Assembly: GCA_016215115.1 (NCBI GenBank)
Contig: JACRLN010000024.1
Span: 35,337-99,336 of the forward strand
Reading direction: 5' to 3'
Origin: Nitrospirota bacterium
GTDB lineage: Bacteria; Nitrospirota; Thermodesulfovibrionia; UBA6902
Length of the DNA stretch: 64,000 nt
Shown here: positions 5,850 through 63,550 of the stretch, in pieces
How the letters are laid out: each line of letters opens with the position of its first letter
Numbering within the stretch: the stretch's first letter is position 1
Notes under the pieces: generated by a model
What the model was told of the DNA's origin: nothing
Databases searched by the model: none
What the model saw: the letters and a program-made list of their open reading frames with translations, nothing else
Position numbers and translations under genes: made by a program

Positions 5850-6000
5850 ACTACTTAGTTGAAATCGGAGCTACAAGTTTGTCATTCCGTACTTGATGCG
5901 GAATTCAGTAGGGGCAATTCATGAATTGCCACTACATATTCTCTGGATTCCCGTTTACACAGGAATTACAGAAGAACTGGAATTACTTGTTTACAACCTC

Positions 6001-12388: not shown

Positions 12389-12418
12389 GAGCAAAAATAG
12401 AGTAGAATAAGTACATAA

Positions 12419-12493
12419 GCGCGGAAGAGCAGAAGCGCGGAAGTAAAGAAAATAAAAAGACTTTCGGGCTTTCGGGCTTACGAACTTCCGAGC
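12419..12493. repeat. Family D element: imperfect inverted repeat made of degenerate 7-8-mers (GGAAGAG CAGAAGC GCGGAAG ... ACTTTCG GGCTTTCG ... GAACTTCC)
   Basis: Seen directly between porB and tRNA-Asn. Similar elements at 26421-26510, 37461-37540 and 63481-63550. Confidence 0.7.
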
Positions 12494-14652: not shown

Positions 14653-14826
14653 GCTTGTTTGAGCTTTGACTTTTTAAAAACTTTCCTTTAAACTTCAATT
14701 GACAAAAATGCGATTTGACGCAGACAAACGCTAAAAACACAAGGATCAAATTTTTATGGATTCTCTGATTTAATCCTTGTGATGACTTATTAAGGTTCTC
14801 ATAATAGTCTGAACATTATTATAAGC

Positions 14827-14905
14827 GTCATTCCCGCATGTCGTTAGCGGGAATCCAGTAATTTCTATCCTCTGGATGCCCGATTAAAGTCCTCGGGCAT
14901 GACAG
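14827..14905. repeat. Family B double-hairpin repeat (GTCATTCCCGC...GCGGGAATCCAG ... GGGCATGACAG)
   Basis: Seen directly. Related copies at 22852-22932, 25689-25806, 29317-29400, 56866-56957, 57420-57512 and 58372-58445. Confidence 0.75.
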
Positions 14906-14977
14906 ACAAAGGCCGACAGTTTGTAAATACTGTTTTGCACAGATTATTGTATATATGCATTCATCAGATATTAAACT

Positions 14978-16675: not shown

Positions 16676-17949
16676 AAAGTCAGCAGTCAGAAACAAGGAG
16701 TAAGGGGTCAGGAATAAGGGGTTTAATTTCAAATTTTAAATTTCAAATTTTTATTTTTTTACTTATTACTTGTCACTTGTCGCTTGTCACTGTTTCTGAC
16801 GCCAAAGTCTACATCGACATCACATCACCTGCTATTCAGAAGCTCCCAATATCAATAACAGCTAAAGGCGCTCCTGAGGCAAAAGAGATTGAGTCGATCA
16901 TAATAAATGACCTTGATTTCACAGGACTATTTTCTTTTGTCGCTCCGGAGGTCCCCGGGGCTGAGATCATTGTGCGATCTGATGTTGATGTTTCATTAAA
17001 TGAAATAACTGTTCTCTGGTCTATCATTGATTTAGTTGAAAACAAAGAAGCGCTCAAGAAACGAAATACCGCATCCAGAAAAAGTATCCGTGCAATAGCC
17101 CATAACATATCAAACGATATTTATAAATTTATAACTGAAAAGGAAGGGGTTTTCAGGACAAAAATTTCCTATCTTGTATCCGTATCACCGGGGAATAAAG
17201 AACTGTATTTAATGGACTGGGATGGATATAGCCCGATAAAGGTAATACCGGTCGGTTTAACCTCAAGTCATGCATGGTCGAATGACAGCCGTTTTCTCAT
17301 ATATTCATCAGAGAGAAACAGGGCCTGGAAGATATATTTCTTCGATATTAATGATTTCAGAGAAATTGTGCTGTTTTCCTCAAACGGACTAAACCTTGTC
17401 GGGAACTCCTCACCGCGGGATGAGATAGCGTTCTCATCATCCAAAGACGGCAATTCAGAAATATATACTATAAATAAAGACGGAAGCAATCTTCGAAAAC
17501 TTACGCATTCATTCGGAATTGATGTTTCCCCGGTGTTTTCTCCTGATGGATCCTCCATAGCCTTAGTATCAGACAGAGGAGGTTCTCCGCAGATATATAT
17601 AATGGATTCAAATGGAAGCGGGATAAGAAGAATAACGTTTGAAGGTTCATATAACACATCTCCCACATGGTCTCCTGACGGAAAATGGATAGCTTATACC
17701 GGAATGAAGGATGGCAAAAATCAGATTTTCATGGTAAAATCTGACGGAACAGGACTAAGACAACTTACTTTCAACGGTAATAACGAAAGTCCATCATTGT
17801 CTCCCGATGGTCTGTTTTTAGCATTTGATTCTGACAGAGATGGCAAGCGCGGTATTTACATTATGCGACTCAATGGAGATGAACAGAGAAGGATTACACC
17901 AAAGGATACAAAAGCCATGGCGCCAAAATGGTCGCCGTATTTTAATTAA
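16672..17949 (+). CDS. tolB: Tol-Pal system beta-propeller protein TolB
   Basis: TolB N-terminal domain plus a WD40-like propeller with repeated SPDG motifs. The N-terminal extension and signal-peptide region are encoded by a 7-mer tandem repeat (ACTTGTC x3). Confidence 0.8.
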   Translation: MKSQQSETRSKGSGIRGLISNFKFQIFIFLLITCHLSLVTVSDAKVYIDITSPAIQKLPISITAKGAPEAKEIESIIINDLDFTGLFSFVAPEVPGAEIIVRSDVDVSLNEITVLWSIIDLVENKEALKKRNTASRKSIRAIAHNISNDIYKFITEKEGVFRTKISYLVSVSPGNKELYLMDWDGYSPIKVIPVGLTSSHAWSNDSRFLIYSSERNRAWKIYFFDINDFREIVLFSSNGLNLVGNSSPRDEIAFSSSKDGNSEIYTINKDGSNLRKLTHSFGIDVSPVFSPDGSSIALVSDRGGSPQIYIMDSNGSGIRRITFEGSYNTSPTWSPDGKWIAYTGMKDGKNQIFMVKSDGTGLRQLTFNGNNESPSLSPDGLFLAFDSDRDGKRGIYIMRLNGDEQRRITPKDTKAMAPKWSPYFN

Positions 17950-18528: not shown

Positions 18529-18594
18529 CATTCAATTAACCACAGAGAACACTGAGGATCTGAATAGAAGATATGAAGTTGAGAAGTTAGGAAG

Positions 18595-19632
18595 ATGAAA
18601 AGGAAATTATATATGAGATTAAAGAATCTTAAAAACAGCCTTTTCATTCTATCCGCTGTCTTCTGTCTTCTTTGTTCTGTTCTAATATTCACCGGATGCG
18701 CTACAACAGAAGATGTGAATAGAACGCAGTATGATACCAATTTATTAAAAACCGAGGTCCGGGATATAAAGGAAAAATTATCTTCACCGCTTCAAAAGGA
18801 AAAACTTGTCACGCTTGACAAAAAACTGCAGGAAATTCAGAGCACACAGGAATTAACTTCTAAATCAGTTTCAGACCTGCTGATTCAATTCCAGTCTCTC
18901 ACAACAGAATTCCGTGTTCTTACCGGCCGCTTTGAAGAATCACGCTATTATGCTGAAAAAGTTTCGACAGAAATGAAGTCTGAAAAAGAAAAACTTGCCG
19001 CTCAATTGAAGGAGTTGGAACTCTCAATTGATGATTTAAAGAAAAGGGTTGCATTAGCGGAAAAAATAGCCTCTCCTGACTTGAAGGAGGAAGCAAACCC
19101 GGCAGAAGAGAAGAAAACTGTTGAAGAAGCAAAGACGGTCGAGGAAACGAAAAAGGCTCAGGAGTCAGAAAAGAAAGGGCTCGAGAAACCTGAAGATAAA
19201 AAAGAAGCTCAAAAAACTGAACGCAAGAAAGAAATAACAAAAACGGATGTGAAAGATGTCTATCTAACCGGTTATCAGGCCTTCAAGGAAGGCAAAACTG
19301 CGGAGGCAAGAGAAAACTTCATGTCTGTGCTCAAAGATTATCCTGACAATGAATATTCGGACAATGCGCGTTTCTGGATGGCTGAAAGTTACTATAAGGA
19401 AAAGAACTATGAAGACGCCATCCTTGTATATGAAGAACTTTTAAAAAAGAATCCTAAAAGCGACAAGGCGTCAGGCGCATTGTGGAAGCAGGGATTGTCT
19501 TTTTATGCTTTGAAAGACGAAAAGACAGGCAAGATAGTTCTGGAGAAACTGATAGAGCAATTCCCAAATTCTGAACAGGCACTGCTTGCAAAAAAGAAGC
19601 TTGGCAAAACCCCCCCTTCAAAGAAGAAATAA
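18595..19632 (+). CDS. cpoB: Tol-Pal cell-division coordinator CpoB/YbgF (coiled coil + TPR)
   Basis: Lipoprotein-like signal (LIFTGC), a long coiled-coil region and C-terminal TPR repeats, last gene of the tol-pal cluster. The start may be at the downstream Met (MRLKNL). Confidence 0.7.
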   Translation: MKRKLYMRLKNLKNSLFILSAVFCLLCSVLIFTGCATTEDVNRTQYDTNLLKTEVRDIKEKLSSPLQKEKLVTLDKKLQEIQSTQELTSKSVSDLLIQFQSLTTEFRVLTGRFEESRYYAEKVSTEMKSEKEKLAAQLKELELSIDDLKKRVALAEKIASPDLKEEANPAEEKKTVEEAKTVEETKKAQESEKKGLEKPEDKKEAQKTERKKEITKTDVKDVYLTGYQAFKEGKTAEARENFMSVLKDYPDNEYSDNARFWMAESYYKEKNYEDAILVYEELLKKNPKSDKASGALWKQGLSFYALKDEKTGKIVLEKLIEQFPNSEQALLAKKKLGKTPPSKKK

Positions 19633-21545: not shown

Positions 21546-21562
21546 ATGTAATCATCTTTATA

Positions 21563-21638
21563 AAATCTCCCCTTACCCCTCTTTGCCAAAGAGGGGAATT
21601 AGTTCCCCCTTTGAAAAAGGGGGAGAAAGGGGGATTTT
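21563..21638. repeat. Family A MITE-like repeat, copy 2
   Basis: AAAATCTCCCC TTA CCCCTCTTTGCCAAAGAGGGG ... CCCCCTTTGAAAAAGGGGG AGA AAGGGGGATTTTTT. Flanked by the HAD stop and the methyltransferase start. Confidence 0.8.
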
Positions 21639-22367
21639 TTGAAACAAGAACAAAACGAAACCCTTGACAGCATAAAAGACATAAAGCTGTTTCAGGCAAA
21701 AAACGGTTATCGCTTCAGCGTAGACGCCCTTTTACTTGAAAATTTTATTTCTGCCAAGCGGCTTGAAAAAGGCATTGAACTTGGTACCGGTTCAGGCATC
21801 ATATCAATCTTACTTGCAAAGAGGTTGAAAAGCACAAAAATTATTGCTGTAGAAATTCAAAGCAATCTCGCTGAACGTGCAATAAGAAATGTGAGTCTGA
21901 ATAGTCTTGATGAGAGGATAGAGATACTTCAAAAAGACATCAAGGATTTGAAAAAGATTTATCCGGCCAATAAATTTGACTTTGTATTTTCAAACCCTCC
22001 TTTTAGAAAAACAACGACCGGTCGCTTAAGTATCTACGAAGAACGTGCTGTCGCAAGACACGAGGTTGAAATAACACTCCCTGATTTAATCAGGACAGCA
22101 TCTTATCTGATTAAACATTCAGGGAAGTTTTTCCTGATCTATCATCCCTTCAGACTTGCAGAATTAATAAGCCTCTTGCAAAAAGCAAAACTTGAACCGA
22201 AAAGGATGAGATTTGTACATTCAAAAATGGGCGAGGAGGCTAAAATGGTTTTGATTGAAGCAGTAAAAGGTTCAGGCACATGGCTTAAAATTGCCCATCC
22301 CTTATTTATCTATGAAAAAGGCAGTGAATATACTTCAGAGTTAAAAAAGATTCTTTCGGTACCCTGA
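21639..22367 (+). CDS. N6-adenine-specific SAM-dependent methyltransferase (TrmN6/YfiC-like small methyltransferase domain)
   Basis: SAM-binding GxGxG (ELGTGSGIISILLA) and the catalytic motif FSNPPF. TTG start abuts the repeat, so the start is uncertain. Confidence 0.6.
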   Translation: MKQEQNETLDSIKDIKLFQAKNGYRFSVDALLLENFISAKRLEKGIELGTGSGIISILLAKRLKSTKIIAVEIQSNLAERAIRNVSLNSLDERIEILQKDIKDLKKIYPANKFDFVFSNPPFRKTTTGRLSIYEERAVARHEVEITLPDLIRTASYLIKHSGKFFLIYHPFRLAELISLLQKAKLEPKRMRFVHSKMGEEAKMVLIEAVKGSGTWLKIAHPLFIYEKGSEYTSELKKILSVP

Positions 22368-22778: not shown

Positions 22779-22851
22779 GGCAAGTTGCTACTACTTAGAA
22801 TTACATAGCAAACGAGCCTCTTGCAAAAGTATCGTGAAAATCGCTTTTGCC

Positions 22852-22932
22852 GTCATACCCGCGAAGGCGGGTATCCAGAAGTCTTTGGTTTTATAGAATA
22901 CTGGATTCCCGATAAAGACATCGGGAATGACG
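22852..22932. repeat. Family B double-hairpin repeat copy
   Basis: GTCATACCCGCGAAGGCGGGTATCCAG ... CTGGATTCCCGATAAAGACATCGGGAATGAC. Confidence 0.75.
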
Positions 22933-23030
22933 AATAAAGACTATTGCAAGAGCTTCAAACTACAAGATTAGTTATAATTTATAAGTTGATTTAATAATAT
23001 ATAATTATAACTAAACTTATTTATTTTAGC

Positions 23031-25577: not shown

Positions 25578-25688
25578 TTTTACTCGGCGTAAGTTATAAT
25601 CTGGGTTATTTTAATTTTGAAATTGCTTCGTAATTCGAACTGAGGAGTTCATAAGTAAATAGAGTCTGTTTATTAATGTCGTAAATGT

Positions 25689-25806
25689 TCAAACGCGTGT
25701 CATGCCCGAAGCCTGCCCTCGAATGTCGTAATCGGGGGTCTTTAATCGGGCATCCAGAACTTATTAAAAAGACTGGATTCCCGCTCAACAGACTGCGGGA
25801 ATGACG
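25689..25806. repeat. Family B repeat, extended copy with three hairpins
   Basis: GTCATGCCCGAAGCCTGCCCTCGAATGTCGTAATCGGGGGTC ... GGGCATCCAG ... CTGGATTCCCGCTCAACAGACTGCGGGAATGAC. Confidence 0.75.
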
Positions 25807-25863
25807 CTTCAGTGTTTGATTTCATGGACAGACTCTAACCTGGATTTGAAAATCAGGCAAAAA

Positions 25864-26420: not shown

Positions 26421-26510
26421 ACGAGTGAGAAGTAGAAAGTGGGAAGTAAAGAAAGAAAAATTTAATATGCCTTTTTTACTTCTTACCTCTTACTTCCTAC
26501 TTCTTACTTA
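26421..26510. repeat. Family D element: (GAGTGAG AAGTAGA AAGTGGG AAGTAAA GAAAGAA) ... inverted (TTTTTACTTCTTACCTCTTACTTCCTACTTCTTACTTA)
   Basis: Seen directly. A long imperfect hairpin built from heptamer units, sitting between tRNA-Arg and the glutamate synthase genes. Confidence 0.7.
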
Positions 26511-26522
26511 AGGAAAGAAAAC

Positions 26523-29272: not shown

Positions 29273-29316
29273 AGATAAAACAAAGAACAAAGAACACAGA
29301 GCACAGACTAAAAACA

Positions 29317-29400
29317 TGTCATTCCCGCAGTCTGTTGAGCGGGAATCCAGAGTCTTTTTAGAGGGAACTGGATTCCGGCTTAAGGACTGCCGGAATGACA
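29317..29400. repeat. Family B double-hairpin repeat copy
   Basis: GTCATTCCCGCAGTCTGTTGAGCGGGAATCCAG ... CTGGATTCCGGCTTAAGGACTGCCGGAATGACA. About 90% identical to the reverse complement of the copy at 56866-56957. Confidence 0.8.
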
Positions 29401-37446: not shown

Positions 37447-37460
37447 GGCAGAGGCATGAA

Positions 37461-37540
37461 ATAGAAGAAGTTGAGAAAATTGGAAGATGAGAAGTTGTGC
37501 CCTTTTGCCTTCATAATTTCCGGACATTCCCTTAAGCTTT
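37461..37540. repeat. Family D element (AGAAGAAGTTGAGAAAATTGGAAGATGAGAAGTTG ... inverted CTTTTGCCTTCATAATTTCCGGACATTCCCTTAAGC)
   Basis: Seen directly, 3' of the REC gene. Confidence 0.6.
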
Positions 37541-44705: not shown

Positions 44706-44726
44706 GAAAAAGTTTGTAAGATCGTA

Positions 44727-44818
44727 GTAGGGGCGATCCGGTGGATCGCCCCTACGAGAGGACACAAAAAGGGCACGTCGCGACGTGCCCCTACAGGGCG
44801 TATGCCATACGCCCCTAC
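44727..44818. repeat. Family C palindromic (REP-like) repeats, three consecutive palindromes
   Basis: GTAGGGGCGATCCGGTGGATCGCCCCTAC, then the perfect palindrome GGCACGTCGCGACGTGCC, then GGGCGTATGCCATACGCCC. Followed at 44840-44880 by an 8-mer array (CTTTTGCA CTTCTGCT CTTTTGCA CTTTCGCG). Confidence 0.8.
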
Positions 44819-44938
44819 TTTATTGCTTACGCCCTTCCCCGCTTTTGCACTTCTGCTCTTTTGCACTTTCGCGCTCTTGACATTGTTCGGAAATAGCGTA
44901 TGATTTAATATGTAAAGCAAAAAAACAGGAGGTGTGCG

Positions 44939-45358
44939 ATGAAAACTGTAAAACAACTTTTGTTTGCCGCCCTCATAGGGCTTCTCATGGTTTCCGTGGC
45001 AATGGCACAAGAGAAAGCAAGTCAAACTGCCGAGCCGGGCCCAACCACAACCTATCAGGCCAAGTTTCCAATCACCATTCAGGGCGGAGAATATGATATG
45101 AAAACCGTCATAATAGATTTCCCTCAAGGGGTGGGGATGCCTACACATATGCATGGCGGACACGTACTTGTGATAGTACTGAATGGTGAGATGACACTCA
45201 AAGAGAAAGGCACAGAGAGGATAATAAAAGCCGGAGAAAGCTGGACTGAGAATCCCGGCAATCACCACTCAGTCGTCAATGCAGGCTCTACCACTGCCAG
45301 GGTTGTGGTTAACATGCTGCTGCCAAAAGGCGCTGAGGCTACCACGATAATTAAGTAG
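44939..45358 (+). CDS. secreted cupin-domain protein
   Basis: Signal peptide (LLFAALIGLLMVSVAMAQE). A cupin_2-like core (PTHMHGGHVLVIVLNGEM ... NPGNHHS). Confidence 0.6.
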   Translation: MKTVKQLLFAALIGLLMVSVAMAQEKASQTAEPGPTTTYQAKFPITIQGGEYDMKTVIIDFPQGVGMPTHMHGGHVLVIVLNGEMTLKEKGTERIIKAGESWTENPGNHHSVVNAGSTTARVVVNMLLPKGAEATTIIK

Positions 45359-45426
45359 GGGCGATCCGGTGGATTGCCCAAGTGTGGTATCGGGGAAAAA
45401 AGGGCGACCCGCCGGGTCGACCCTAC
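45356..45426. repeat. Family C palindromic repeats (GTAGGGGCGATCCGGTGGATTGCCC ... GGGCGACCCGCCGGGTCGACCCTAC)
   Basis: Seen directly, downstream of the cupin gene. Confidence 0.75.
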
Positions 45427-45489: not shown

Positions 45490-46668
45490 TTAATGAAGCT
45501 CAGGCCAGGAAGCGGTCTGCTCTCTTACAGCAATCGCTATCTTGTAAAGAATTGTAAGCACTAAAAACCCTATGGACCATATACCGAGAGTGATCAACGC
45601 CTCTGGCAGTGATGGCCAGTACTCTGTCACCCGCTCGAACATATTCGGAACAAACCCGCCTACGACCAATCCAAAACCCTTGTCGATCCAGAGGGAGATG
45701 AAAACCGCTACACACGCGAACGCAAGCATATTCTCTTTCCTGCGCATGTTAGGATTCACCAGAATGATAAGCGATACAATTGCAAGGATAGTTGACATCC
45801 ACATTAACGGAACCAGTTTTGAGTATCCATCCAGACCGGCATACAGGTAAACGAACGGATGCATGTGACCCGGTATCTGGCTGTAGAACGCAGTGAAGAA
45901 CTCAAGTCCGAGAAGGAACACATTCGCAAACATTGCATAGGTGACTATCTTGCCCAGCGCCTGAATTGCCTCTTTGCCGGGATCAAATTTACTGACCTTC
46001 CTAACTATTAGACACAAGATAATAAGGAGCGCAGGCCCTGATGCAAAGGCTGATCCAAGAAACCGCGCTGCCATAACGGCTGTCAGCCAGAAATGTCTTC
46101 CGGGAAGTCCGGCATATAAGAATGCTGTTACTGTATGAATGCTGACTGCCCATGGAACAGACAGATATATCAGGGGCTTTACCCAATCCGGCGGCGGAAC
46201 TCCTTTACGGTCCGCGGTCAGAGTGGTCCAGCCGACTATTAAGTTAATAAAAAGATAACCGTTTAAGACCATTGCGTCCCAGAAGAGGATCGAGTTAGGG
46301 GTCGGATGCAGTATGACATTCATGACCCTCATAGGCTGGCCCAAATCAACAAAGATAAACAGGATACACATGGTAACGGCTGCTATGGCCAAAAATTCTC
46401 CAAGGATTACAACTTTCCCGAATGTCTTAAAATCATGCAGATAATACGGGATCACCAGCATTACTGCCGAAGCCGCGACCCCGACAAGGAACGTGAACTG
46501 GGAAATATAGAACCCCCAGGAAACATCCCTGCTCATCCCTGTGATACCAAGGCCGTAATCAAACTGACGGAGGTAATTGATAAAACCAACTCCGATAATA
46601 GCAAGCAAAATGAATATCCATGTCCAGTACCTTTTGCTGCCGGTAAGCGCTTTCTCAAGCATGTTCAT
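45490..46668 (-). CDS. dsrP: DsrP, NrfD/PsrC-family integral membrane subunit of the DsrMKJOP complex
   Basis: 392 aa, about 10 TM helices, NrfD-like. Last gene of the dsrMKJOP run. Confidence 0.75.
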   Translation of the reverse strand: MNMLEKALTGSKRYWTWIFILLAIIGVGFINYLRQFDYGLGITGMSRDVSWGFYISQFTFLVGVAASAVMLVIPYYLHDFKTFGKVVILGEFLAIAAVTMCILFIFVDLGQPMRVMNVILHPTPNSILFWDAMVLNGYLFINLIVGWTTLTADRKGVPPPDWVKPLIYLSVPWAVSIHTVTAFLYAGLPGRHFWLTAVMAARFLGSAFASGPALLIILCLIVRKVSKFDPGKEAIQALGKIVTYAMFANVFLLGLEFFTAFYSQIPGHMHPFVYLYAGLDGYSKLVPLMWMSTILAIVSLIILVNPNMRRKENMLAFACVAVFISLWIDKGFGLVVGGFVPNMFERVTEYWPSLPEALITLGIWSIGFLVLTILYKIAIAVREQTASWPELH

Positions 46669-51924: not shown

Positions 51925-53546
51925 GGTTTTATCGAGGTATCCTTAAACTTCCTTGCACATCTCACCAACCCATCCGCCCATTCAGGCGCTCCAATTGCAT
52001 GAAGATGTGTATATGCAGCCAATACATTTTTGTAGCACATTCCGTCTTTGCCATCTACGATACCCTTCCCGCGTCTGACGTTGAATGCAAAATATATTTG
52101 CTCTGAAAATCCCCCTACATCCCCCATTGTAGGGGCGACCCGGCGAGTCGCCCCTACGGTTGAGAGGGGATCTATTTCAAGAACTCGCGAATAATGAAAC
52201 TCATGTCCCTTAAGAACGGTCTTATCGGGAAAGTATTGATTAGCTTTTTCAACCTCAACAATTGTATAACCATGCGCCTGCGGTTTTTTCTCAAGCCCAA
52301 AAGTTATCGGAAGGGCGCCAACCATCGGATATGTCTTGTTGCCTAAAACAAGACTTTTACCAAGATACATCAGCCCGCCGCATTCGGCATATACAGGAAG
52401 CCCGTCCTGAATTGCATCAAACAATGAATTCCTGAAACTTATATTATCAGCCAATGCTATCGCATGTGTTTCAGGGAAACCTCCGCCCATGTAAAGCGCG
52501 TCTATTTCGGGAAGTTTTGTTTCTCTCAGAGGGCTCACTTCGATCAGACTGGCTCCCCTTTTCTCAAGCTCTTCAAAATTCTCCTGGTAGTAAAATTGAA
52601 AAGCAGAATCTCGGATGATACCGATTTTGACTACGGAGCTGGAAGTTGGAGGTTGGGGGTTAGCTTGACCCTTGACACTAATCCCTAATCCCTTATCCCT
52701 TATCCCTGTCTCCAGAGGAGACGCTTCATTGGCAATTTTCAATACTTGATCGATATCAATATATTTCTCTCCTATGTCAGCAACTAATGCCAAAGATTCT
52801 TCAACGTCCTGCCGTTCCTGGAAAGGGGTTAAGCCCATATGCCTTTCAGGAAAAGGGTCTTTCTTTAATCTTGGGATGGCGCCCACCACAGGCAATTTAC
52901 ACCTTTTTTCTATTGCTTTTTTTATCAGGGTCTCCTGCCTGTTTGTCGCAATCTGGTTAAGAACGATACCACCTATTGCAACATCTGCATCCATCTGCTG
53001 GCATCCCAGGACCATTGCGGCAATTGTATTGGTTGCCTTTGTGCAGTCAACAATAATTATTACCGGAGTTTTTAATAATTTGGCCAGTTCAGCGGTGCTA
53101 TAAGTGCCCTCATCATCAACTCCGTCAAACAAGCCCCTATTACCTTCGATGATGGCAATCTGAGTGGAGAGTGGAGAGTTTGGAGTTAGGAGTTCGGATT
53201 CTTTGATTTTGGATTTCAGATTTCGAATTTCGGATCTCAATTCTGTCTTACTTTTGCACTTCTGCACTTTTGCACTTCTGTACTTATCATATGTATGCGA
53301 GATAAAAGACCCAAGCGCCTGCTCCGGCTTCATCATGAAGAGGTCCAGATTGTAACATGGAGTCCCGGCCGTCTTTGCAAGCCAGCCCGCGTCAATATAA
53401 TCAGGCCCTTTCTTAAAAGGTGTAACAAGCAAGCCTCTTTTTCTGAATAAAGAAACAAGACATAAAGAAAGGATAGTCTTTCCGCTCCCACCCCTGAGAC
53501 CGGAAACAACTATCCTTGGTATTGAGAAATTCTGTGATTGGGTCAT
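51921..53546 (-). CDS. dsrN: DsrN, cobyrinic acid a,c-diamide synthase (CbiA/CobB) homolog, putative sirohaem amidase
   Basis: P-loop (VVSGLRGGSGKT), a CobB/CbiA ATPase domain and a C-terminal class-I amidotransferase-like domain (GHEFHYS ... YTHLHAIG). Carries three in-frame repeat-derived segments (52107-52172, 52640-52720, 53160-53290). Confidence 0.8.
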   Translation of the reverse strand: MTQSQNFSIPRIVVSGLRGGSGKTILSLCLVSLFRKRGLLVTPFKKGPDYIDAGWLAKTAGTPCYNLDLFMMKPEQALGSFISHTYDKYRSAKVQKCKSKTELRSEIRNLKSKIKESELLTPNSPLSTQIAIIEGNRGLFDGVDDEGTYSTAELAKLLKTPVIIIVDCTKATNTIAAMVLGCQQMDADVAIGGIVLNQIATNRQETLIKKAIEKRCKLPVVGAIPRLKKDPFPERHMGLTPFQERQDVEESLALVADIGEKYIDIDQVLKIANEASPLETGIRDKGLGISVKGQANPQPPTSSSVVKIGIIRDSAFQFYYQENFEELEKRGASLIEVSPLRETKLPEIDALYMGGGFPETHAIALADNISFRNSLFDAIQDGLPVYAECGGLMYLGKSLVLGNKTYPMVGALPITFGLEKKPQAHGYTIVEVEKANQYFPDKTVLKGHEFHYSRVLEIDPLSTVGATRRVAPTMGDVGGFSEQIYFAFNVRRGKGIVDGKDGMCYKNVLAAYTHLHAIGAPEWADGLVRCARKFKDTSIKP

Positions 53547-53571: not shown

Positions 53572-53670
53572 AAAATTTCCCCCCTTTAAAAAAGGGGGGC
53601 AAGGGGGGATTTTCAAGAAACATATTTTTCTCAAAATCTCCCCTAACCCCTCTTTGTCAAAGAGGGGCAT
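53572..53670. repeat. Family A MITE-like repeat, copy 3 (two tandem sub-units)
   Basis: AAAATTTCCCCCCTTTAAAAAAGGGGGGCAAGGGGGGATTTT ... AAAATCTCCCCTAACCCCTCTTTGTCAAAGAGGGG. Between dsrD and dsrN. Confidence 0.8.
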
Positions 53671-53697
53671 CAAGGCTTAATGACAAATTTTATGTAC

Positions 53698-53966: not shown

Positions 53967-54000
53967 TTTGTAGGGGCGACCCGCCGGGTCGCCCCTACAT
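53967..54000. repeat. Family C perfect palindrome TGTAGGGGCGACCCGCCGGGTCGCCCCTACA
   Basis: Seen directly between dsrB and dsrD. Confidence 0.85.
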
Positions 54001-54012
54001 GCCTGTGATTAA

Positions 54013-55089
54013 TTATCTTGAATACTTGAATGCTGCCGATGTCCTGAATGTATCTCTTGCGAAAGTGAAATCGTCAATATGCTGGAATGTGAACTCGATT
54101 CCGGTCAGATTGAAGAAGTCTTCCCATCCTATCCTCTCAATCCATTCGCCAACTCTTTCATGCTTCCTTGCATTTTTTGCATATACCTCAAGGATATTCT
54201 TTATTGCAGCAACAACCTTGGGCCATCTCGGCGGTTCATTGTAAAAGAACGGGATTGCCAGTTTCGAGAACTTCGGATTTGTTCTGAGACTGCCGATCTT
54301 TCCGCCCACCACTATCGCCACGCCATCTTCTTCCGGCTTGTGAATGTCAATCGGCGGACATACGGTGAAGCAGTTTCCGCAGTACATGCATTTATCCTCA
54401 TTGATTGTTACTGATTTGTCTTTCGGATTGGGTCTGATTGCCGATGTCGGACACGATGCGACTGTTGTCGGAATCTCACATACTTTAGGCACAAGTTCAT
54501 GATTGATTGTCGGCACTTTTCTGTGCACGGCAACTACAGCTATATCAGAACAGTGAACAGCGCCGCACATGTTAACGCAGCATGCAACTGCAAGCCTTAC
54601 TTTATTGGGCAGTTCTTTTGTTGTGAAATATTCATAGAGATCATCCATTATCGCCTTTACCAATCCTGAGGCATCGGTACAAGCGCTGTGGCAGTGTACC
54701 CATCCCTGTGTATGGACTACGTTACTGACTCTCGGTCCGATACCGCCAACTGAATATTTTTTTGCCTTCAGTTCTGCTACAAGAGGATCTACCTTGCTCT
54801 GGTCGGACACGAGAAATTCCACGTTGTTTCTTGTTGTGAAACGGAGGTATCCGTCACAGTATTTCTCTGACATATCGCAGATTTCACGGATAGTCTCGGT
54901 GCTTAAAATCCTTGGTGATGCAACCCTTACCGTATAAAGCTTATCGCCGCTTTCTGCAACATGCACCATTGTGCCGCCGCTCAAAACCTCATGATATTTC
55001 CATTTGCCGTAGTTTTTCTTTATTACAGGCGGTATAAACTGATCATATTTAGGTGGTCCAATATCTGTTTGTCTTTTTGGTAATGCCAT
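54013..55089 (-). CDS. dsrB: dissimilatory sulfite reductase beta subunit
   Basis: 358 aa. Sirohaem/[4Fe-4S] Cys motifs ([21 protein letters not shown]) and a ferredoxin-like insert ([10 protein letters not shown] ... [12 protein letters not shown]). Confidence 0.9.
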
Positions 55090-55124
55090 GTATTTATTCC
55101 TCCTATTTTTATTTTATTAATTAT

Positions 55125-56309
55125 TTATTTTTTGAAATCGCTTTCTGACCAGAAGAAGAACGGGTCTTTTCTCGGCTCTTTAACCTGCTGTGGCTGAGGC
55201 GGCACACCAATGTGCTCAAGGAAAGGCCTCAAGCCTTTTATTTCAAGAACCTCGCCGATTCTCTCTCTTGGTTTTGCGGTATCATCCCACCATTCAATCA
55301 TGCTGCGGATAAGGGTCTTCAATTCTGTGTATGGCGCCTCCACTTTTATAAATGGAACGATTACCCAGGAAAGCAATGAACCGACAACAATCGGAGCCTT
55401 ACTGCCAACAAGAAGGGTTGCGCCTTTTTCCTTACCTGGTCTTAGCGCCTTTGTCATCTTTGCTATACAATGCATGCACCTGTTGCATTGAACGTCATTA
55501 ATCTTGAGTGTCTTTCCATCGTAAGACATACATTCGGTAGGACACATGTCAATTATCTCTGCATTGATATTCATGCCTGAGTCTGCATACTTTTTCACTT
55601 CTGCCTGATCAATCTGGATATTGCCTTTCCAGGTACCGATGATGGACAGGTCTGCACGGGCAATAGCTGCAACGCAGTCAACTGCGCAGCCGGCTGTCTT
55701 GATTTTAAATTTATAAGGGAATGCCGGCCTGTGAAGTTCATCCTGGAATTCCTGTGTGAGTGCGTATGTAATATCAAGTGTGTCTATACAGGACCATTCG
55801 CAGCGGCCCGGGCCAACGCAGCAACTTGGGGTCCTCATTGCAGAACCTGAACCTCCGAGATCCCATCCGCGTGAAGAATACTCAGCAAAAATGGCTTCGA
55901 GATTTTCAGTCGTGGTCCCGAGAAGAACCAGGTCACCGGTGGAGCCATGCATATTTGTAAGTCCGCTTCCGTATTTATCCCAGATGTCGCAGATCATCTT
56001 TAATGCTTTTGCAGTATAGAAGAAACCGCTTGTCTGGTTAATTCTTACAGTATGAAACTGTGCAATACCGGGGAATTCTTCAGGTAAAGACGAATATCTG
56101 CCGATTACGCCGCCCCCGTAACCGAGAACGCCGACTATTCCGCCGTGTTTCCAGTATCCGCGTTTTGTCTTATACGATTTTTCAAGCTGGCCTAATTCAT
56201 CATCTGCCATTGAGCTTTTTTTCGCAGCCTTTTTTATTTCTGTAACGAAACTCGGCCACGGTCCTTTTTCAAGCTCGTCCAACATTGGTGTTTTATACTT
56301 CCCGCTCAT
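55125..56309 (-). CDS. dsrA: dissimilatory sulfite reductase alpha subunit
   Basis: 394 aa. Sulfite-reductase Cys motifs (PSCCVGPGRCEWSC, TAGCAVDCVAA) and a ferredoxin-like domain (CPTECM ... CNRCMHCIAKM). Confidence 0.9.
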   Translation of the reverse strand: MSGKYKTPMLDELEKGPWPSFVTEIKKAAKKSSMADDELGQLEKSYKTKRGYWKHGGIVGVLGYGGGVIGRYSSLPEEFPGIAQFHTVRINQTSGFFYTAKALKMICDIWDKYGSGLTNMHGSTGDLVLLGTTTENLEAIFAEYSSRGWDLGGSGSAMRTPSCCVGPGRCEWSCIDTLDITYALTQEFQDELHRPAFPYKFKIKTAGCAVDCVAAIARADLSIIGTWKGNIQIDQAEVKKYADSGMNINAEIIDMCPTECMSYDGKTLKINDVQCNRCMHCIAKMTKALRPGKEKGATLLVGSKAPIVVGSLLSWVIVPFIKVEAPYTELKTLIRSMIEWWDDTAKPRERIGEVLEIKGLRPFLEHIGVPPQPQQVKEPRKDPFFFWSESDFKK

Positions 56310-56865: not shown

Positions 56866-56957
56866 AGTTTGTCATTCCGGCAGTCCTTAAGCCGGAATCC
56901 AGTTCCTTATGAAATGACTCTGGATTCCCGCTCAAAAGACTGCGGGAATGACAGACA
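56866..56957. repeat. Family B double-hairpin repeat copy (opposite orientation to the 29317 copy)
   Basis: TGTCATTCCGGCAGTCCTTAAGCCGGAATCCAG ... CTGGATTCCCGCTCAAAAGACTGCGGGAATGACA. ORF-track entries 56861-57091 and 56869-57051 are artefacts of this repeat. Confidence 0.8.
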
Positions 56958-57047
56958 AAGAAGTAGATTAATAACCCCGATGCAAAGCATCGAGGAATTC
57001 TGTCGATTAAATAACTTCTTCTTTTCCATAATTTTGATCTTTGATTA

Positions 57048-57305: not shown

Positions 57306-57419
57306 CAGATTAGAAGTTTAGCAGATAGAAATTTAAAATTGTAAGGGGGCCTGGCATGCCGTGCCCCTACTGGAAACTGGAAATAAAAACTGTTACAATG
57401 AAACCTCTTGCAAAAATCT

Positions 57420-57512
57420 TTATTTGTCATTCCCGAGGTCTTTATCGGGAATCCAGTATTATTTAGAACAAAAGACCCTCGAATGTCGTAATCGGAGGCG
57501 GGTATGACGGCT
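57420..57512. repeat. Family B double-hairpin repeat copy
   Basis: TGTCATTCCCGAGGTCTTTATCGGGAATCCAG ... CCTCGAATGTCGTAATCGGAGGCGGGTATGAC. Confidence 0.75.
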
Positions 57513-57576
57513 AAAGCGATTTTCATGATACTTTTGCAAAAGGCTCAATGTATAAATTAAAATTTTACAGTAATTC

Positions 57577-58371: not shown

Positions 58372-58445
58372 GGATTCCCGACAAGCGGGAATGACAGAAC
58401 CTTTGCTGCCGTCATTCGGCTTGTCCGGAATCTCTCCGTCACTGG
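58372..58445. repeat. Family B repeat, partial copy
   Basis: TTCCCGACAAGCGGGAATGACAGA ... GTCATTCGGCTTGTCCGGAATC. The ORF 58307-58510 is an artefact. Confidence 0.65.
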
Positions 58446-60675: not shown

Positions 60676-61409
60676 AAAAACAGTCAGCGGTAGGCAGCCA
60701 AAAAAATAAAGCAGAAGGTAAGAAGATAAGAAGATGGGAGGATAAGAAATCTCCACTTCTCAACTTCTTAACTTCTCAACTTCTCATACTCTGTTTACTT
60801 GTCACTTGTCACTTGTCACTTGTCACTATTGTTCATGCTGCCACCGTCGACGAAATTGTCAACGACATCCAGAAGAAGTTAGCTGAGATTCATGACATGA
60901 AAGGCACATTCTCTCAAACAAGCTATCTCAAAGATCTCGAGAAAACAGAAACGTATGCAGGCACATTTTACATAAAAAAACCTTCCGGTATAATGTGGGA
61001 ATATATACCCCCCCGCGATGAAAAAATTATAATTAACGGGACGGAAACGTGGGCTTACAAAAAGTCACAAAAACAGGCAATAAAAACCAGATTCAGCAAA
61101 GAAGCGTATAGCCAGGTCCCTATAGCATTGTTAAACGGTCTCGAAAATCTCGGTGCTGATTTTGACATAACGATCATGGAACAGGACACGCTGCATTTGA
61201 AGCCAAAACATCAGATGGGATTCATTCAGGAGATAATCCTCAAGACAAGCTCCAGGAATTTCCCTGTAAAAATGCTTAAAGTATTGGACGTGTACGGCAA
61301 TAAAATTACCATAGAACTCACAGATATAAAAACTAACAATGGACTTGATGATTCACTTTTTACTTTTACAGCGCCTCCGGGAGTTGAGGTGTTTGATATG
61401 ACCCAGTGA
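60657..61409 (+). CDS. lolA: outer-membrane lipoprotein carrier protein LolA (LolA-like fold)
   Basis: Signal peptide, then an open beta-barrel-type sequence (GTFSQTSYLKDLEKTETYAGTFYIKKPSGIMWEY). The start is uncertain (60657 or 60672). The N-terminal extension and signal h-region are encoded by an (ACTTGTC)x4 array. Confidence 0.65.
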   Translation: MEEKTMKKQSAVGSQKNKAEGKKIRRWEDKKSPLLNFLTSQLLILCLLVTCHLSLVTIVHAATVDEIVNDIQKKLAEIHDMKGTFSQTSYLKDLEKTETYAGTFYIKKPSGIMWEYIPPRDEKIIINGTETWAYKKSQKQAIKTRFSKEAYSQVPIALLNGLENLGADFDITIMEQDTLHLKPKHQMGFIQEIILKTSSRNFPVKMLKVLDVYGNKITIELTDIKTNNGLDDSLFTFTAPPGVEVFDMTQ

Positions 61410-61459
61410 AGAATAGCCCGGAAGTGCTGAAGAGCGGAAGTTCATAAGCAAAAGAGGAA

Positions 61460-62275: not shown

Positions 62276-62294
62276 AAGATAACAGTTTCTTGAA

Positions 62295-62445
62295 AAAAAT
62301 CCCCCTGCATCCCCCTTTTTCAAAGGGGGACATTTTTCCCCTCTATTAAGAGGGGTTAGGGGGGTGTTCCCCTCTTTGGCAAAGAGGCTGGGCTCCCGTT
62401 GCAGCGAAGCATCGCAACGGGAAGTGGGGAGATTTTTAAAACTAT
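62295..62445. repeat. Family A MITE-like repeat, copy 4 (largest; extra GC hairpin CCCGTTGCAGCGAAGCATCGCAACGGG)
   Basis: AAAAATCCCCC ... CCCCCTTTTTCAAAGGGGGA ... CCCCTCTATTAAGAGGGG ... CCCCTCTTTGGCAAAGAGG ... GGGGAGATTTTT. Confidence 0.8.
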
Positions 62446-63428: not shown

Positions 63429-63480
63429 TCTCATCATATTGAATATATAATATAAATACCACAGAGACACGGAGTATAAA

Positions 63481-63550
63481 GTTCGGAAGCACGGAAGTTC
63501 AGAAGTTGGGAAGCCTTTTACTTCCGAGCTTCCAGACTTCCGCACTTTTC
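63481..63550. repeat. Family D element (CGGAAGCA CGGAAGTT CAGAAGTT GGGAAGCC TTTT ACTTCCGA GCTTCCAG ACTTCCGC ACTTTTC)
   Basis: Seen directly. An inverted array of GGAAG/CTTCC-containing 8-mers. The ORF 63204-63545 is an artefact. Confidence 0.7.

Follow-up and report, generated by a model that had tools for sequence, protein, structure and literature searches.

Among the closest described relatives of the repeat reported here are the CGTC-tagged REPs, which have a CGTC (often TGTC) head, stems of 8-9 bp that nearly always start with A-T, loops of 4-5 nt and CCA-like tails, and which occur mostly as head-out dimers, tail-to-tail arrangements being rare (Di Nocera 2013, PMC3733652). The class includes Neisseria dRS3, which constitutes the CGTC-1 family, as well as RPE-4 and RPE-6 of Rickettsia; no transposase associated with CGTC repeats and no RAYT flanked by them was found, and many REPs were argued to act as RNA (PMC3733652). 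A nuclease for hairpins of this kind was described in 2025, when Neisseria SsnA, a single-domain GIY-YIG protein, was reported to bind and cut the 28-nt NTS (CGTCATTCCCGCGMAVGCGGGAATCYRG), acting on it as single-stranded DNA only and on one strand only (Chenal 2025, PMC11893778). Binding requires the C that follows the palindrome and cleavage the 3 nt upstream of it, while the identity of the loop is dispensable (PMC11893778); in the published cases (Neisseria, Wolbachia and relatives) the head-bearing strand alone is bound and nicked by Ssn. The gene is laid out as NTS-ssnA-NTS, and “Ssn-related motifs” (SRM) surround thousands of its homologues. The effect of the system in Neisseria is a modulation of natural transformation. 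The same study worked mainly on Neisseria (three other homologues were assayed in vitro), summarised dRS3 as a site targeted by a phage recombinase, and raised repeat mobilisation by Ssn as an analogy only (PMC11893778). A third point of comparison is QMITE2 of Coxiella, a MITE of ~150-190 bp with terminal inverted repeats (TIRs), direct repeats and a REP core (Wachter 2018, PMC5896051).

Herein we followed up a repeat family in a 64-kb stretch of DNA from a Nitrospirota bacterium (the window, meaning the whole stretch analysed), where an earlier note made from the letters alone had listed seven copies of a MITE-like double hairpin, called family B, among them copy 4, which is the subject of this report. 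Our results indicate that family B probably consists of dimers of a hairpin of the CGTC-tagged REP/NTS/SRM class, which is linked to Ssn, with a second, MITE-borne route in this lineage. The repeat class (as DNA hairpins) and its partner enzyme are already known; a long-loop variant and the use of dimers as cores of two TIR-bounded MITE families look new, and are modest additions.

All seven copies were found where the earlier note had placed them, and its reading of a repeat family that is structured, lies dispersed between genes and is probably mobile was borne out. The palindrome ATTCCSGC-N3-30-GCSGGAAT has 6 matches in the window against 0.00 expected, GTCATTCCSGC with at most one mismatch has 13 against 1.46, and a profile HMM built from related elements added an eighth, degenerate copy that was absent from the earlier list (Table 1). 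Several details had to be amended. Identity, given as ~85-90% for the family, is 88-94% for copies 2 and 6 and 94% for copies 4 and 5 (copy 5 being compared with the reverse complement of copy 4), but other pairs share ~70-75%. The copies are intergenic, as had been described, but according to the ORF list six of the seven lie between same-strand genes, one between divergent genes and none between convergent ones. Two facing units with inverted ends are usually arranged head-out (7/8 copies, the second unit of copy 6 being only half), except that copy 7 is a tail-to-tail dimer (1/8). Copies 2, 3 and 6 do not end where the earlier note had them end, and instead reach outer inverted repeats, whereas the bare head-out dimers in the window are copies 4, 5 and 8. 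The profile match of copy 4 is restricted to the core, its fold scores z = -8 as DNA and -9.3 as RNA, and its neighbours are two glutamate-synthase-like genes; those of copy 5 are two small ATP-synthase genes (atpZ/atpI-like). By reading, the spurious peptide (M)SFRQSLSRNPVP derives from the codons TTG TCA TTC CGG CAG TCC TTA AGC CGG AAT CCA GTT CC at 56869.

Table 1. Family B copies and other features of the window, with positions counted from its first letter and the strand of each unit in brackets.
Feature	Position	Description	Support
Copy 8	5881-5969	Degenerate head-out dimer; units 5881-5908 (+), 5943-5969 (-)	nhmmer E 9e-5
Copy 8 spacer	5908-5935	GTAG-type REP nested inside	
Copy 1	14827-14903	Head-out heterodimer; units 14827-14858 (+, stem ATTCCCGC), 14872-14903 (-, stem ATGCCCGA)	
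Copy 1 shell	~14809-14927	Decayed type I	Profile match at model positions 9-133 of 145
Copy 2	22814-22956	Type II MITE; TIRs GAGCCTCTTGCAAAA / TTGCAAGAGCTTC; core units 22852-22878 (+), 22901-22931 (-)	
Copy 2 duplication	22810-22813 and 22957-22960	AAAC, 4 bp	Perfect
Copy 3	25661-25836	Full-length type I MITE; TIRs 25661-25676, 25820-25836	nhmmer model 1-145, E 2e-22
Copy 3 units		25699-25757 (+), loop with nested 23-nt hairpin 25716-25738; 25773-25805 (-)	
Copy 4 (flagged)	29318-29399	Bare head-out heterodimer; units 29318-29350 (+), 29368-29399 (-)	
Copy 5	56871-56952	Bare head-out heterodimer; units 56871-56902 (+), 56920-56952 (-)	
Copy 6	57401-57546	Type II MITE; unit 57426-57456 (+)	
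Copy 6 second unit	57499-57508	Reduced to half, beside nested hairpin 57476-57498	
Copy 6 duplication	57397-57400 and 57547-57550	AATG, 4 bp	Perfect
Copy 7	58372-58432	Tail-to-tail dimer; short-loop units 58372-58395 (-), 58411-58432 (+)	
23-nt hairpin module	25716-25738, 57476-57498	CCCTCGAATGTCGTAATCGGGGG; within copy 3 loop / copy 6 second unit	
AGAGTCTTTTCATAAAG-like spacers	29351-29367, 56903-56919		
C5/G5-rich family	343-423, 21558-21647, 53572-53681, 62287-62372	Separate intergenic repeat, ~80 nt (AAAATCCCCCTTAATCCCCCTTTTCCAAAGGGGGAG...)	
GTAG-headed REPs	44725-44755, 45353-45383, 45396-45426, 52127-52157, 53968-53998; also 5908-5935, ~57343-57370	GTAGGGGCGACCCGCCGGGTCGCCCCTAC	
8-nt-period runs	12409-12451, 16758-16794, 18563-18602, 26431-26511, 29277-29308, 37460-37495	AAGTGCAGAAGAGCGGAAG..., ACTTGTCACTTGTCACT...	
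Further 8-nt-period runs	44818-44876, 53235-53285, 60715-60830, 61422-61448, 63479-63547	Intergenic	
Terminator-like module	56958-57010	Hairpin 56975-56995, minus strand; CCTCGATGCTTTGCATCGGGG then T-rich tail	
Promoter-like site	57371-57400	TGGAAA-17-TACAAT, directly before copy 6	
NIR_SIR-domain genes	54013-56309	Two adjacent genes, dsrAB look-alikes	
NrfD-like gene	45490-46668		

Every unit in the window keeps the head, stem and tail of one layout, in which a (C/T)GTC head is followed by a stem of 8 bp that opens with two A-T pairs, a loop of 4-10 nt, the other stem half and CCAG. The heads read CGTCAT or TGTCAT in the intact units of copies 1-6 and CGTCAT in the plus-strand unit of copy 7, the stem consists of AT plus six variable paired positions, and the tail is ATCCAG. 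Loops are 8-10 nt long in most window units (exceptions: the first unit of copy 2 with 4 nt, and copy 7 with ~5 nt), and 9 nt is the commonest length in related loci. In copy 4, the letters 29317-29400 thus resolve into TGTCATTCCCGC-AGTCTGTTGA-GCGGGAATCCAG, a 17-nt spacer and CTGGATTCCGGC-TTAAGGACT-GCCGGAATGACA. The sequences GTCATTCC and GGAATGAC, which the earlier note took for the inverted termini of a MITE, are actually the heads of two inverted CGTC-REP/SRM hairpin units. For the analysis of covariation, and as a guard against circularity, units were located by their GTCAT and ATCCAG anchors alone and the seed 32-mer was left out. Among the 114 units so obtained, the variable stem positions are complementary at 6/6 in 89 and at 5/6 in a further 15 (at least 5/6 in 104/114), the observed complementarity being 5.86/6 as compared to 3.9/6 for randomly shuffled pairings of left and right halves. 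Three or four types of Watson-Crick pair are represented at each of stem positions 3, 6, 7 and 8, and copy 7 itself provides a compensatory change, with a CCCG/CGGG stem in the window versus CCGG/CCGG at the orthologous site in locus L216. Since the stems covary strongly, the hairpin itself is under selection. G:T pairs are rare in the stems of these 114 units, and from this scarcity of wobble we infer that a constraint at the level of DNA is a better fit than one on RNA alone. Dimers fold far more stably than shuffled sequence (z = -5 to -9, as DNA or RNA). The earlier note had named a known structured RNA family as the alternative identity: at gathering thresholds, Rfam found two tRNAs only in the window and zero match to family B, yet the element does fit a known family of DNA repeats.

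Family B shares with the CGTC-tagged REPs the head, the 8-bp AT stem, the CCA tail, the predominance of head-out dimers and the rarity of tail-to-tail ones, and likewise its heterodimers are common, it lies in intergenic spaces between same-strand genes and it lacks an associated transposase. It departs from them in its loops, which exceed the published criterion of 4-5 nt, and in its host, as Nitrospirota is outside the five phyla listed in PMC3733652. The likeness to NTS/SRM is in the (C/T)GTCAT head, the ATTCC(C/G)GC-type stem and the C/CCAG after the palindrome. Applied to the window, the published SRM pattern HGTCWYN(0-2)YYVSBRHN(0-5)WNVSBRGN(0-2)RNCYNB (PMC11893778) matched two units, 14826-14858 and 22851-22878, against 0.18 expected by shuffling, and with loop length relaxed it matched seven, the rest failing on loop length or stem variants. 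Most units escape the pattern because their loops are 9-10 nt long, as opposed to ~4 nt in the described motifs. Nitrospirota is unmentioned in the main text of PMC11893778, and dimers and MITE packaging are undescribed there. The Neisseria dRS3/NIME form ATTCCC-N8-GGGAAT has a literal fit in zero window units, the nearest being ATACCC-N8-GGGTAT in copy 2, with 13-16 nt between the half-sites in the others.

The pairing with a nuclease gene was seen in related loci. Three small GIY-YIG ORFs were present in the loci we fetched (L120, L141 and L166), each lying between two inverted units with the tails towards the gene, and their proteins match PF01541 with E values of 1e-15 to 1e-17. The 32-mer shared by window copies 4 and 5 recurs, letter for letter, as the 5' hairpin of L166. 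GTC-headed inverted hairpins likewise stand on both sides of every homologue taken from IMG/VR (L333-L337), and hairpin-flanked homologues also occur in L340 (a Thermodesulfovibrionales MAG), L341 (a complete Nitrospiraceae genome) and L342 with its orthologues (a deltaproteobacterial lineage). Counted as independent ssn-like loci (L120/L332, L141, L166, L333, L334, L335/L336, L337, L340, L341 and L342), 10/10 carry inverted hairpins on both sides, oriented with the tails inwards to the gene, and three of these loci are in Nitrospirota. No ssn gene was found in the 64-kb window. The ssn-like protein family counts 3945 database proteins at E <= 1e-20, and a sequence search of the PDB with an ssn-like protein returned only the uncharacterised UPF0213 protein BH0048. 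Relatives of the L166 protein (P0121-P0240) are 70-84% identical across Nitrospirota, Desulfobulbaceae, Syntrophaceae, Elusimicrobia and others, and most of their contigs are under 2 kb; the high cross-phylum identity and the short contigs suggest frequent horizontal transfer, multicopy status, or both. In L340 the hairpin-flanked ssn gene (1001-1294) sits between nuoA-like and nuoC-like genes, which looks like an insertion into an NADH dehydrogenase operon.

In relatives, the dimer is usually not free-standing, but the core of a MITE. The type I element is 133-145 nt long and has 16-nt TIRs (AGAGTCTGTCCATAAA...TTTATGGACAGACTCT), with the dimer as its core; exact 4-bp repeats lie directly outside the TIRs in 35/55 elements, versus 0/55 at control positions shifted by 4 nt, the 4-nt repeats including AATT (13), ATTT (10), AAAT (5) and ATAT (3). 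These repeats are direct (ATTT...ATTT) and not inverted, and can thus be regarded as target-site duplications. Hairpins are present in 52 of the 55 type I elements, and no “empty shells”, i.e., TIR pairs without a hairpin core, were found in the related loci. A type II shell (GAGCCTCTTGCAAAA...) has TIRs related to those of type I (~11/17 positions by eye) and is bordered by exact 4-bp duplications in L138, L146 and L161 as well as in window copies 2 and 6. Across both shell types the TIRs measure 15-16 nt. They have GAG-type ends and, together with the 4-bp duplications, are reminiscent of the IS5 family. The shells show the features of a MITE (TIRs plus duplication, below 300 bp, non-coding) while the bare dimers do not. 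The search for flanking duplications proposed in the earlier note therefore has a divided outcome, with 4-bp duplications around the shells of copies 2 and 6 and none at the bare dimers in the filled and empty sites compared; the flanks of copy 3, AAAT and AACC, are mismatched and form no intact duplication. A transposase with matching TIRs, for which that note had also suggested looking, was not found: a search of ~0.6-0.8 Mb of related loci for type I or type II TIRs paired at a distance of 500-4000 nt gave nothing. A TIR scan of IMG/VR yielded 39 single matches, which are probably due to chance, and zero inward-facing TIR pairs, and clustering of ORFs near hairpins in 83 related loci gave zero enriched protein families.

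A REP-type core in a TIR shell is what these elements have in common with QMITE2, and short versions of QMITE2 without TIRs look like plain REPs. The two differ in that QMITE2 has a GTAG REP core and direct repeats of 7-11 nt, where family B has a CGTC/SRM dimer and 4-bp duplications, and in that QMITE2 is a hot spot for IS1111 insertion, whereas here two different shells share one core. The CGTC dimers of Halothiobacillus lie inside 41-bp palindromes with no reported target-site duplications (PMC3733652), while the outer palindromes here are TIRs with 4-bp duplications.

Comparison of orthologous sites showed that the copies come and go. For the uppP side of the window, orthologous regions were taken from metagenome contigs encoding UppP at 79-96% identity. 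The site of copy 6 holds a type II element in the window and in L210, and reads as uninterrupted AACTGTTACAAT... in L209 (96%), L223 (95%) and L216 (86%). The copy 5 site, between small atp genes, is occupied by a long-loop dimer in the window, by a short-loop dimer in L223 and L210, by a GTAG REP in L209 and by nothing in L216, L221 and L224. Where copy 4 lies in the window, L331 shows an empty site of 26 nt, L330 carries a single short-loop unit, L329 a short-loop dimer into which a further repeat is nested, and L328 repeats of an unrelated kind. Copy 7 is shared with L210 and L216, but L219, L229 and L212 lack it. Since orthologous sites are found both filled and empty, turnover is fast relative to protein divergence. 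No duplication was seen beside bare dimers at comparable sites, where the relatives are too diverged for base-exact junctions. The further genomic copies that the earlier note expected do exist: the exact 32-mer shared by copies 4 and 5 (GTCATTCCGGCAGTCCTTAAGCCGGAATCCAG) was located in 83 stretches, spread over at least 32 assemblies of a one-genome-per-species collection, nearly all of its carriers being labelled Nitrospirota or Thermodesulfovibrionia. Exact matches to window proteins came only from short Logan contigs (SRR12113393-96). These short-read contigs of the same organism stop inside copies 3 and 6, which fits a genome-wide multicopy repeat. The closest homologues of a window protein are 83-96% identical and belong to Nitrospirota MAGs including Candidatus Magnetoovum and Magnetominusculus.

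Other small repeats share the intergenic spaces of the window (Table 1). These comprise a separate family of C5/G5-rich hairpins, a relative of which is nested in the spacer of the L329 hairpin dimer, a family of GTAG-headed REPs, and runs with an 8-nt period, one of which directly follows the stop codon of the gene upstream of copy 4, as is likewise seen in L329 and L330. The ORF between GTAG REPs at 44939-45358 was considered as a RAYT and rejected, as it encodes a cupin, and the other window ORFs tested for RAYT or transposase are ordinary metabolic genes. A 23-nt hairpin module inside copies 3 and 6, with a variant in L210, is an instance of a repeat nested within a repeat. The spacers of copies 4 and 5 (similar ones occur in L171, L173 and L193) resemble the type I terminal repeat AGAGTCTGTCCATAAA, and may mark an internal site for the transposase or be a vestige of MITE origin. 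The terminator-like module beside copy 5 recurs beside dimers in L171, L173 and L205. A promoter-like site immediately ahead of copy 6 is conserved upstream of uppP in relatives, and copy 6 is probably within the 5' untranslated region of uppP. Further genes of the window include the two dsrAB-like (dissimilatory sulfite-reductase-like) genes, which together with the NrfD-like gene fit a sulfate- or sulfite-reducing host of the Thermodesulfovibrionia.

Other accounts of family B were weighed against its assignment to the CGTC-REP/NTS/SRM class. The copies could be primarily RNA elements, retained as stem-loops between cistrons or in 3'-UTRs for a role in the termination, stabilisation or processing of mRNAs, and six of the seven original copies do lie between same-strand genes, copies 4 and 5 within likely operons, with predicted RNA folds that are very stable (z down to -9) and with the argument of Di Nocera 2013 that many REPs act as RNA. 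We nevertheless regard this as unlikely: terminator scans scored zero copies as terminator-like and no T-run follows any copy, Rfam has no match, both orientations occur, G:T pairs are rare though an RNA-only constraint should tolerate them, and a 32-mer that is identical across at least 32 species is not explained by an RNA role. As orthologous sites are empty in close relatives, no copy is essential, which counts against the role as well. It is decidedly improbable that family B is a classical MITE, whereby the double hairpin of 80-90 nt would be the transposon, GTCATTCC and GGAATGAC its TIRs and a DDE transposase its mover, because the supposed TIRs make up the head and stem portions of two hairpins, each self-complementary and with covarying stems, duplications are not visible beside bare dimers, single units and tail-to-tail dimers occur, and the real TIRs with their 4-bp duplications lie outside the dimer, with zero associated transposase. 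The inverted ends, the sharp stop of bare-copy homology at GTCAT/ATGAC, and the presence or absence of this dispersed family at orthologous sites count in favour of such an element.

That the dimers are REP/REPIN doublets mobilised by a RAYT (IS200/IS605 type) is very unlikely in our estimation. The doublet architecture, the long-hairpin fold and the intergenic position are REPIN-like and the window also harbours a distinct family of REPs with a GTAG head, but the family B head is (C/T)GTC and not GTAG, no RAYT was found flanked by CGTC repeats (Di Nocera 2013, PMC3733652), a Y1 transposase is neither among the window ORFs tested nor enriched near copies, and the gene that is found between inverted copies is a GIY-YIG nuclease. 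There is similarly scant reason to believe that the copies are passive landing pads, targets of IS110-type elements or filamentous phages as for Neisseria dRS3, that are spread by recombination. This reading draws on dRS3 as a phage-recombinase target (PMC11893778) and on the other small repeats nested in loops and spacers here, but neither the window nor 83 related loci have IS110-family or phage genes next to copies, and being a target gives no account of how the hairpins themselves multiply.

Returning to the assignment to the CGTC-REP/NTS/SRM class, a scheme for the spread of the copies can be proposed. By analogy, the head-out dimers of the window may be gene-less counterparts of an SRM-ssn-SRM unit, in the way that REPINs are to REPtrons. 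The two systems are alike in having a gene flanked by inverted hairpins and many gene-less doublets that fold into a long hairpin, and unlike in that the gene is a GIY-YIG nuclease here and an HUH tyrosine transposase there, and that the head is GTC instead of GTAG. A cognate Ssn encoded elsewhere in the source genome would act on the dimers in single-stranded DNA, such as arises in replication, repair or DNA uptake, the cleavage of long-loop hairpins by a Nitrospirota Ssn being putative. As a second route of spread, the dimers form the cores of the two related MITE families, whose shells are presumably moved in trans by a putative DDE-type transposase. Since most copies lie between same-strand genes, they are likely also transcribed as stem-loops, as a side effect. 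The full form of this scheme, in which gene-less dimers are copied in trans by Ssn through a duplication-free GIY-YIG transposition and are additionally cargo of two DDE-type MITE families, is put forward as a tentative idea that we consider more doubtful than probable. The bare dimers could also be mere MITE remnants.

For those who work with such genomes, the repeats break short-read assemblies of these organisms and yield spurious ORFs, and given the long-loop variant, counts of SRM by the published pattern may be underestimates. The pairing of motif and nuclease extends to uncultured sulfate-reducing Nitrospirota, where dimers can hitch-hike in conventional MITEs with clean 4-bp duplications and filled and empty sites. 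How CGTC palindromes spread was left open by Di Nocera 2013, and Chenal 2025 provided a nuclease, not a mechanism of mobilisation; if the scheme above is true, the “transposase-less” CGTC repeats would have two independent routes of spread, the first of them parallel to REPIN/RAYT.
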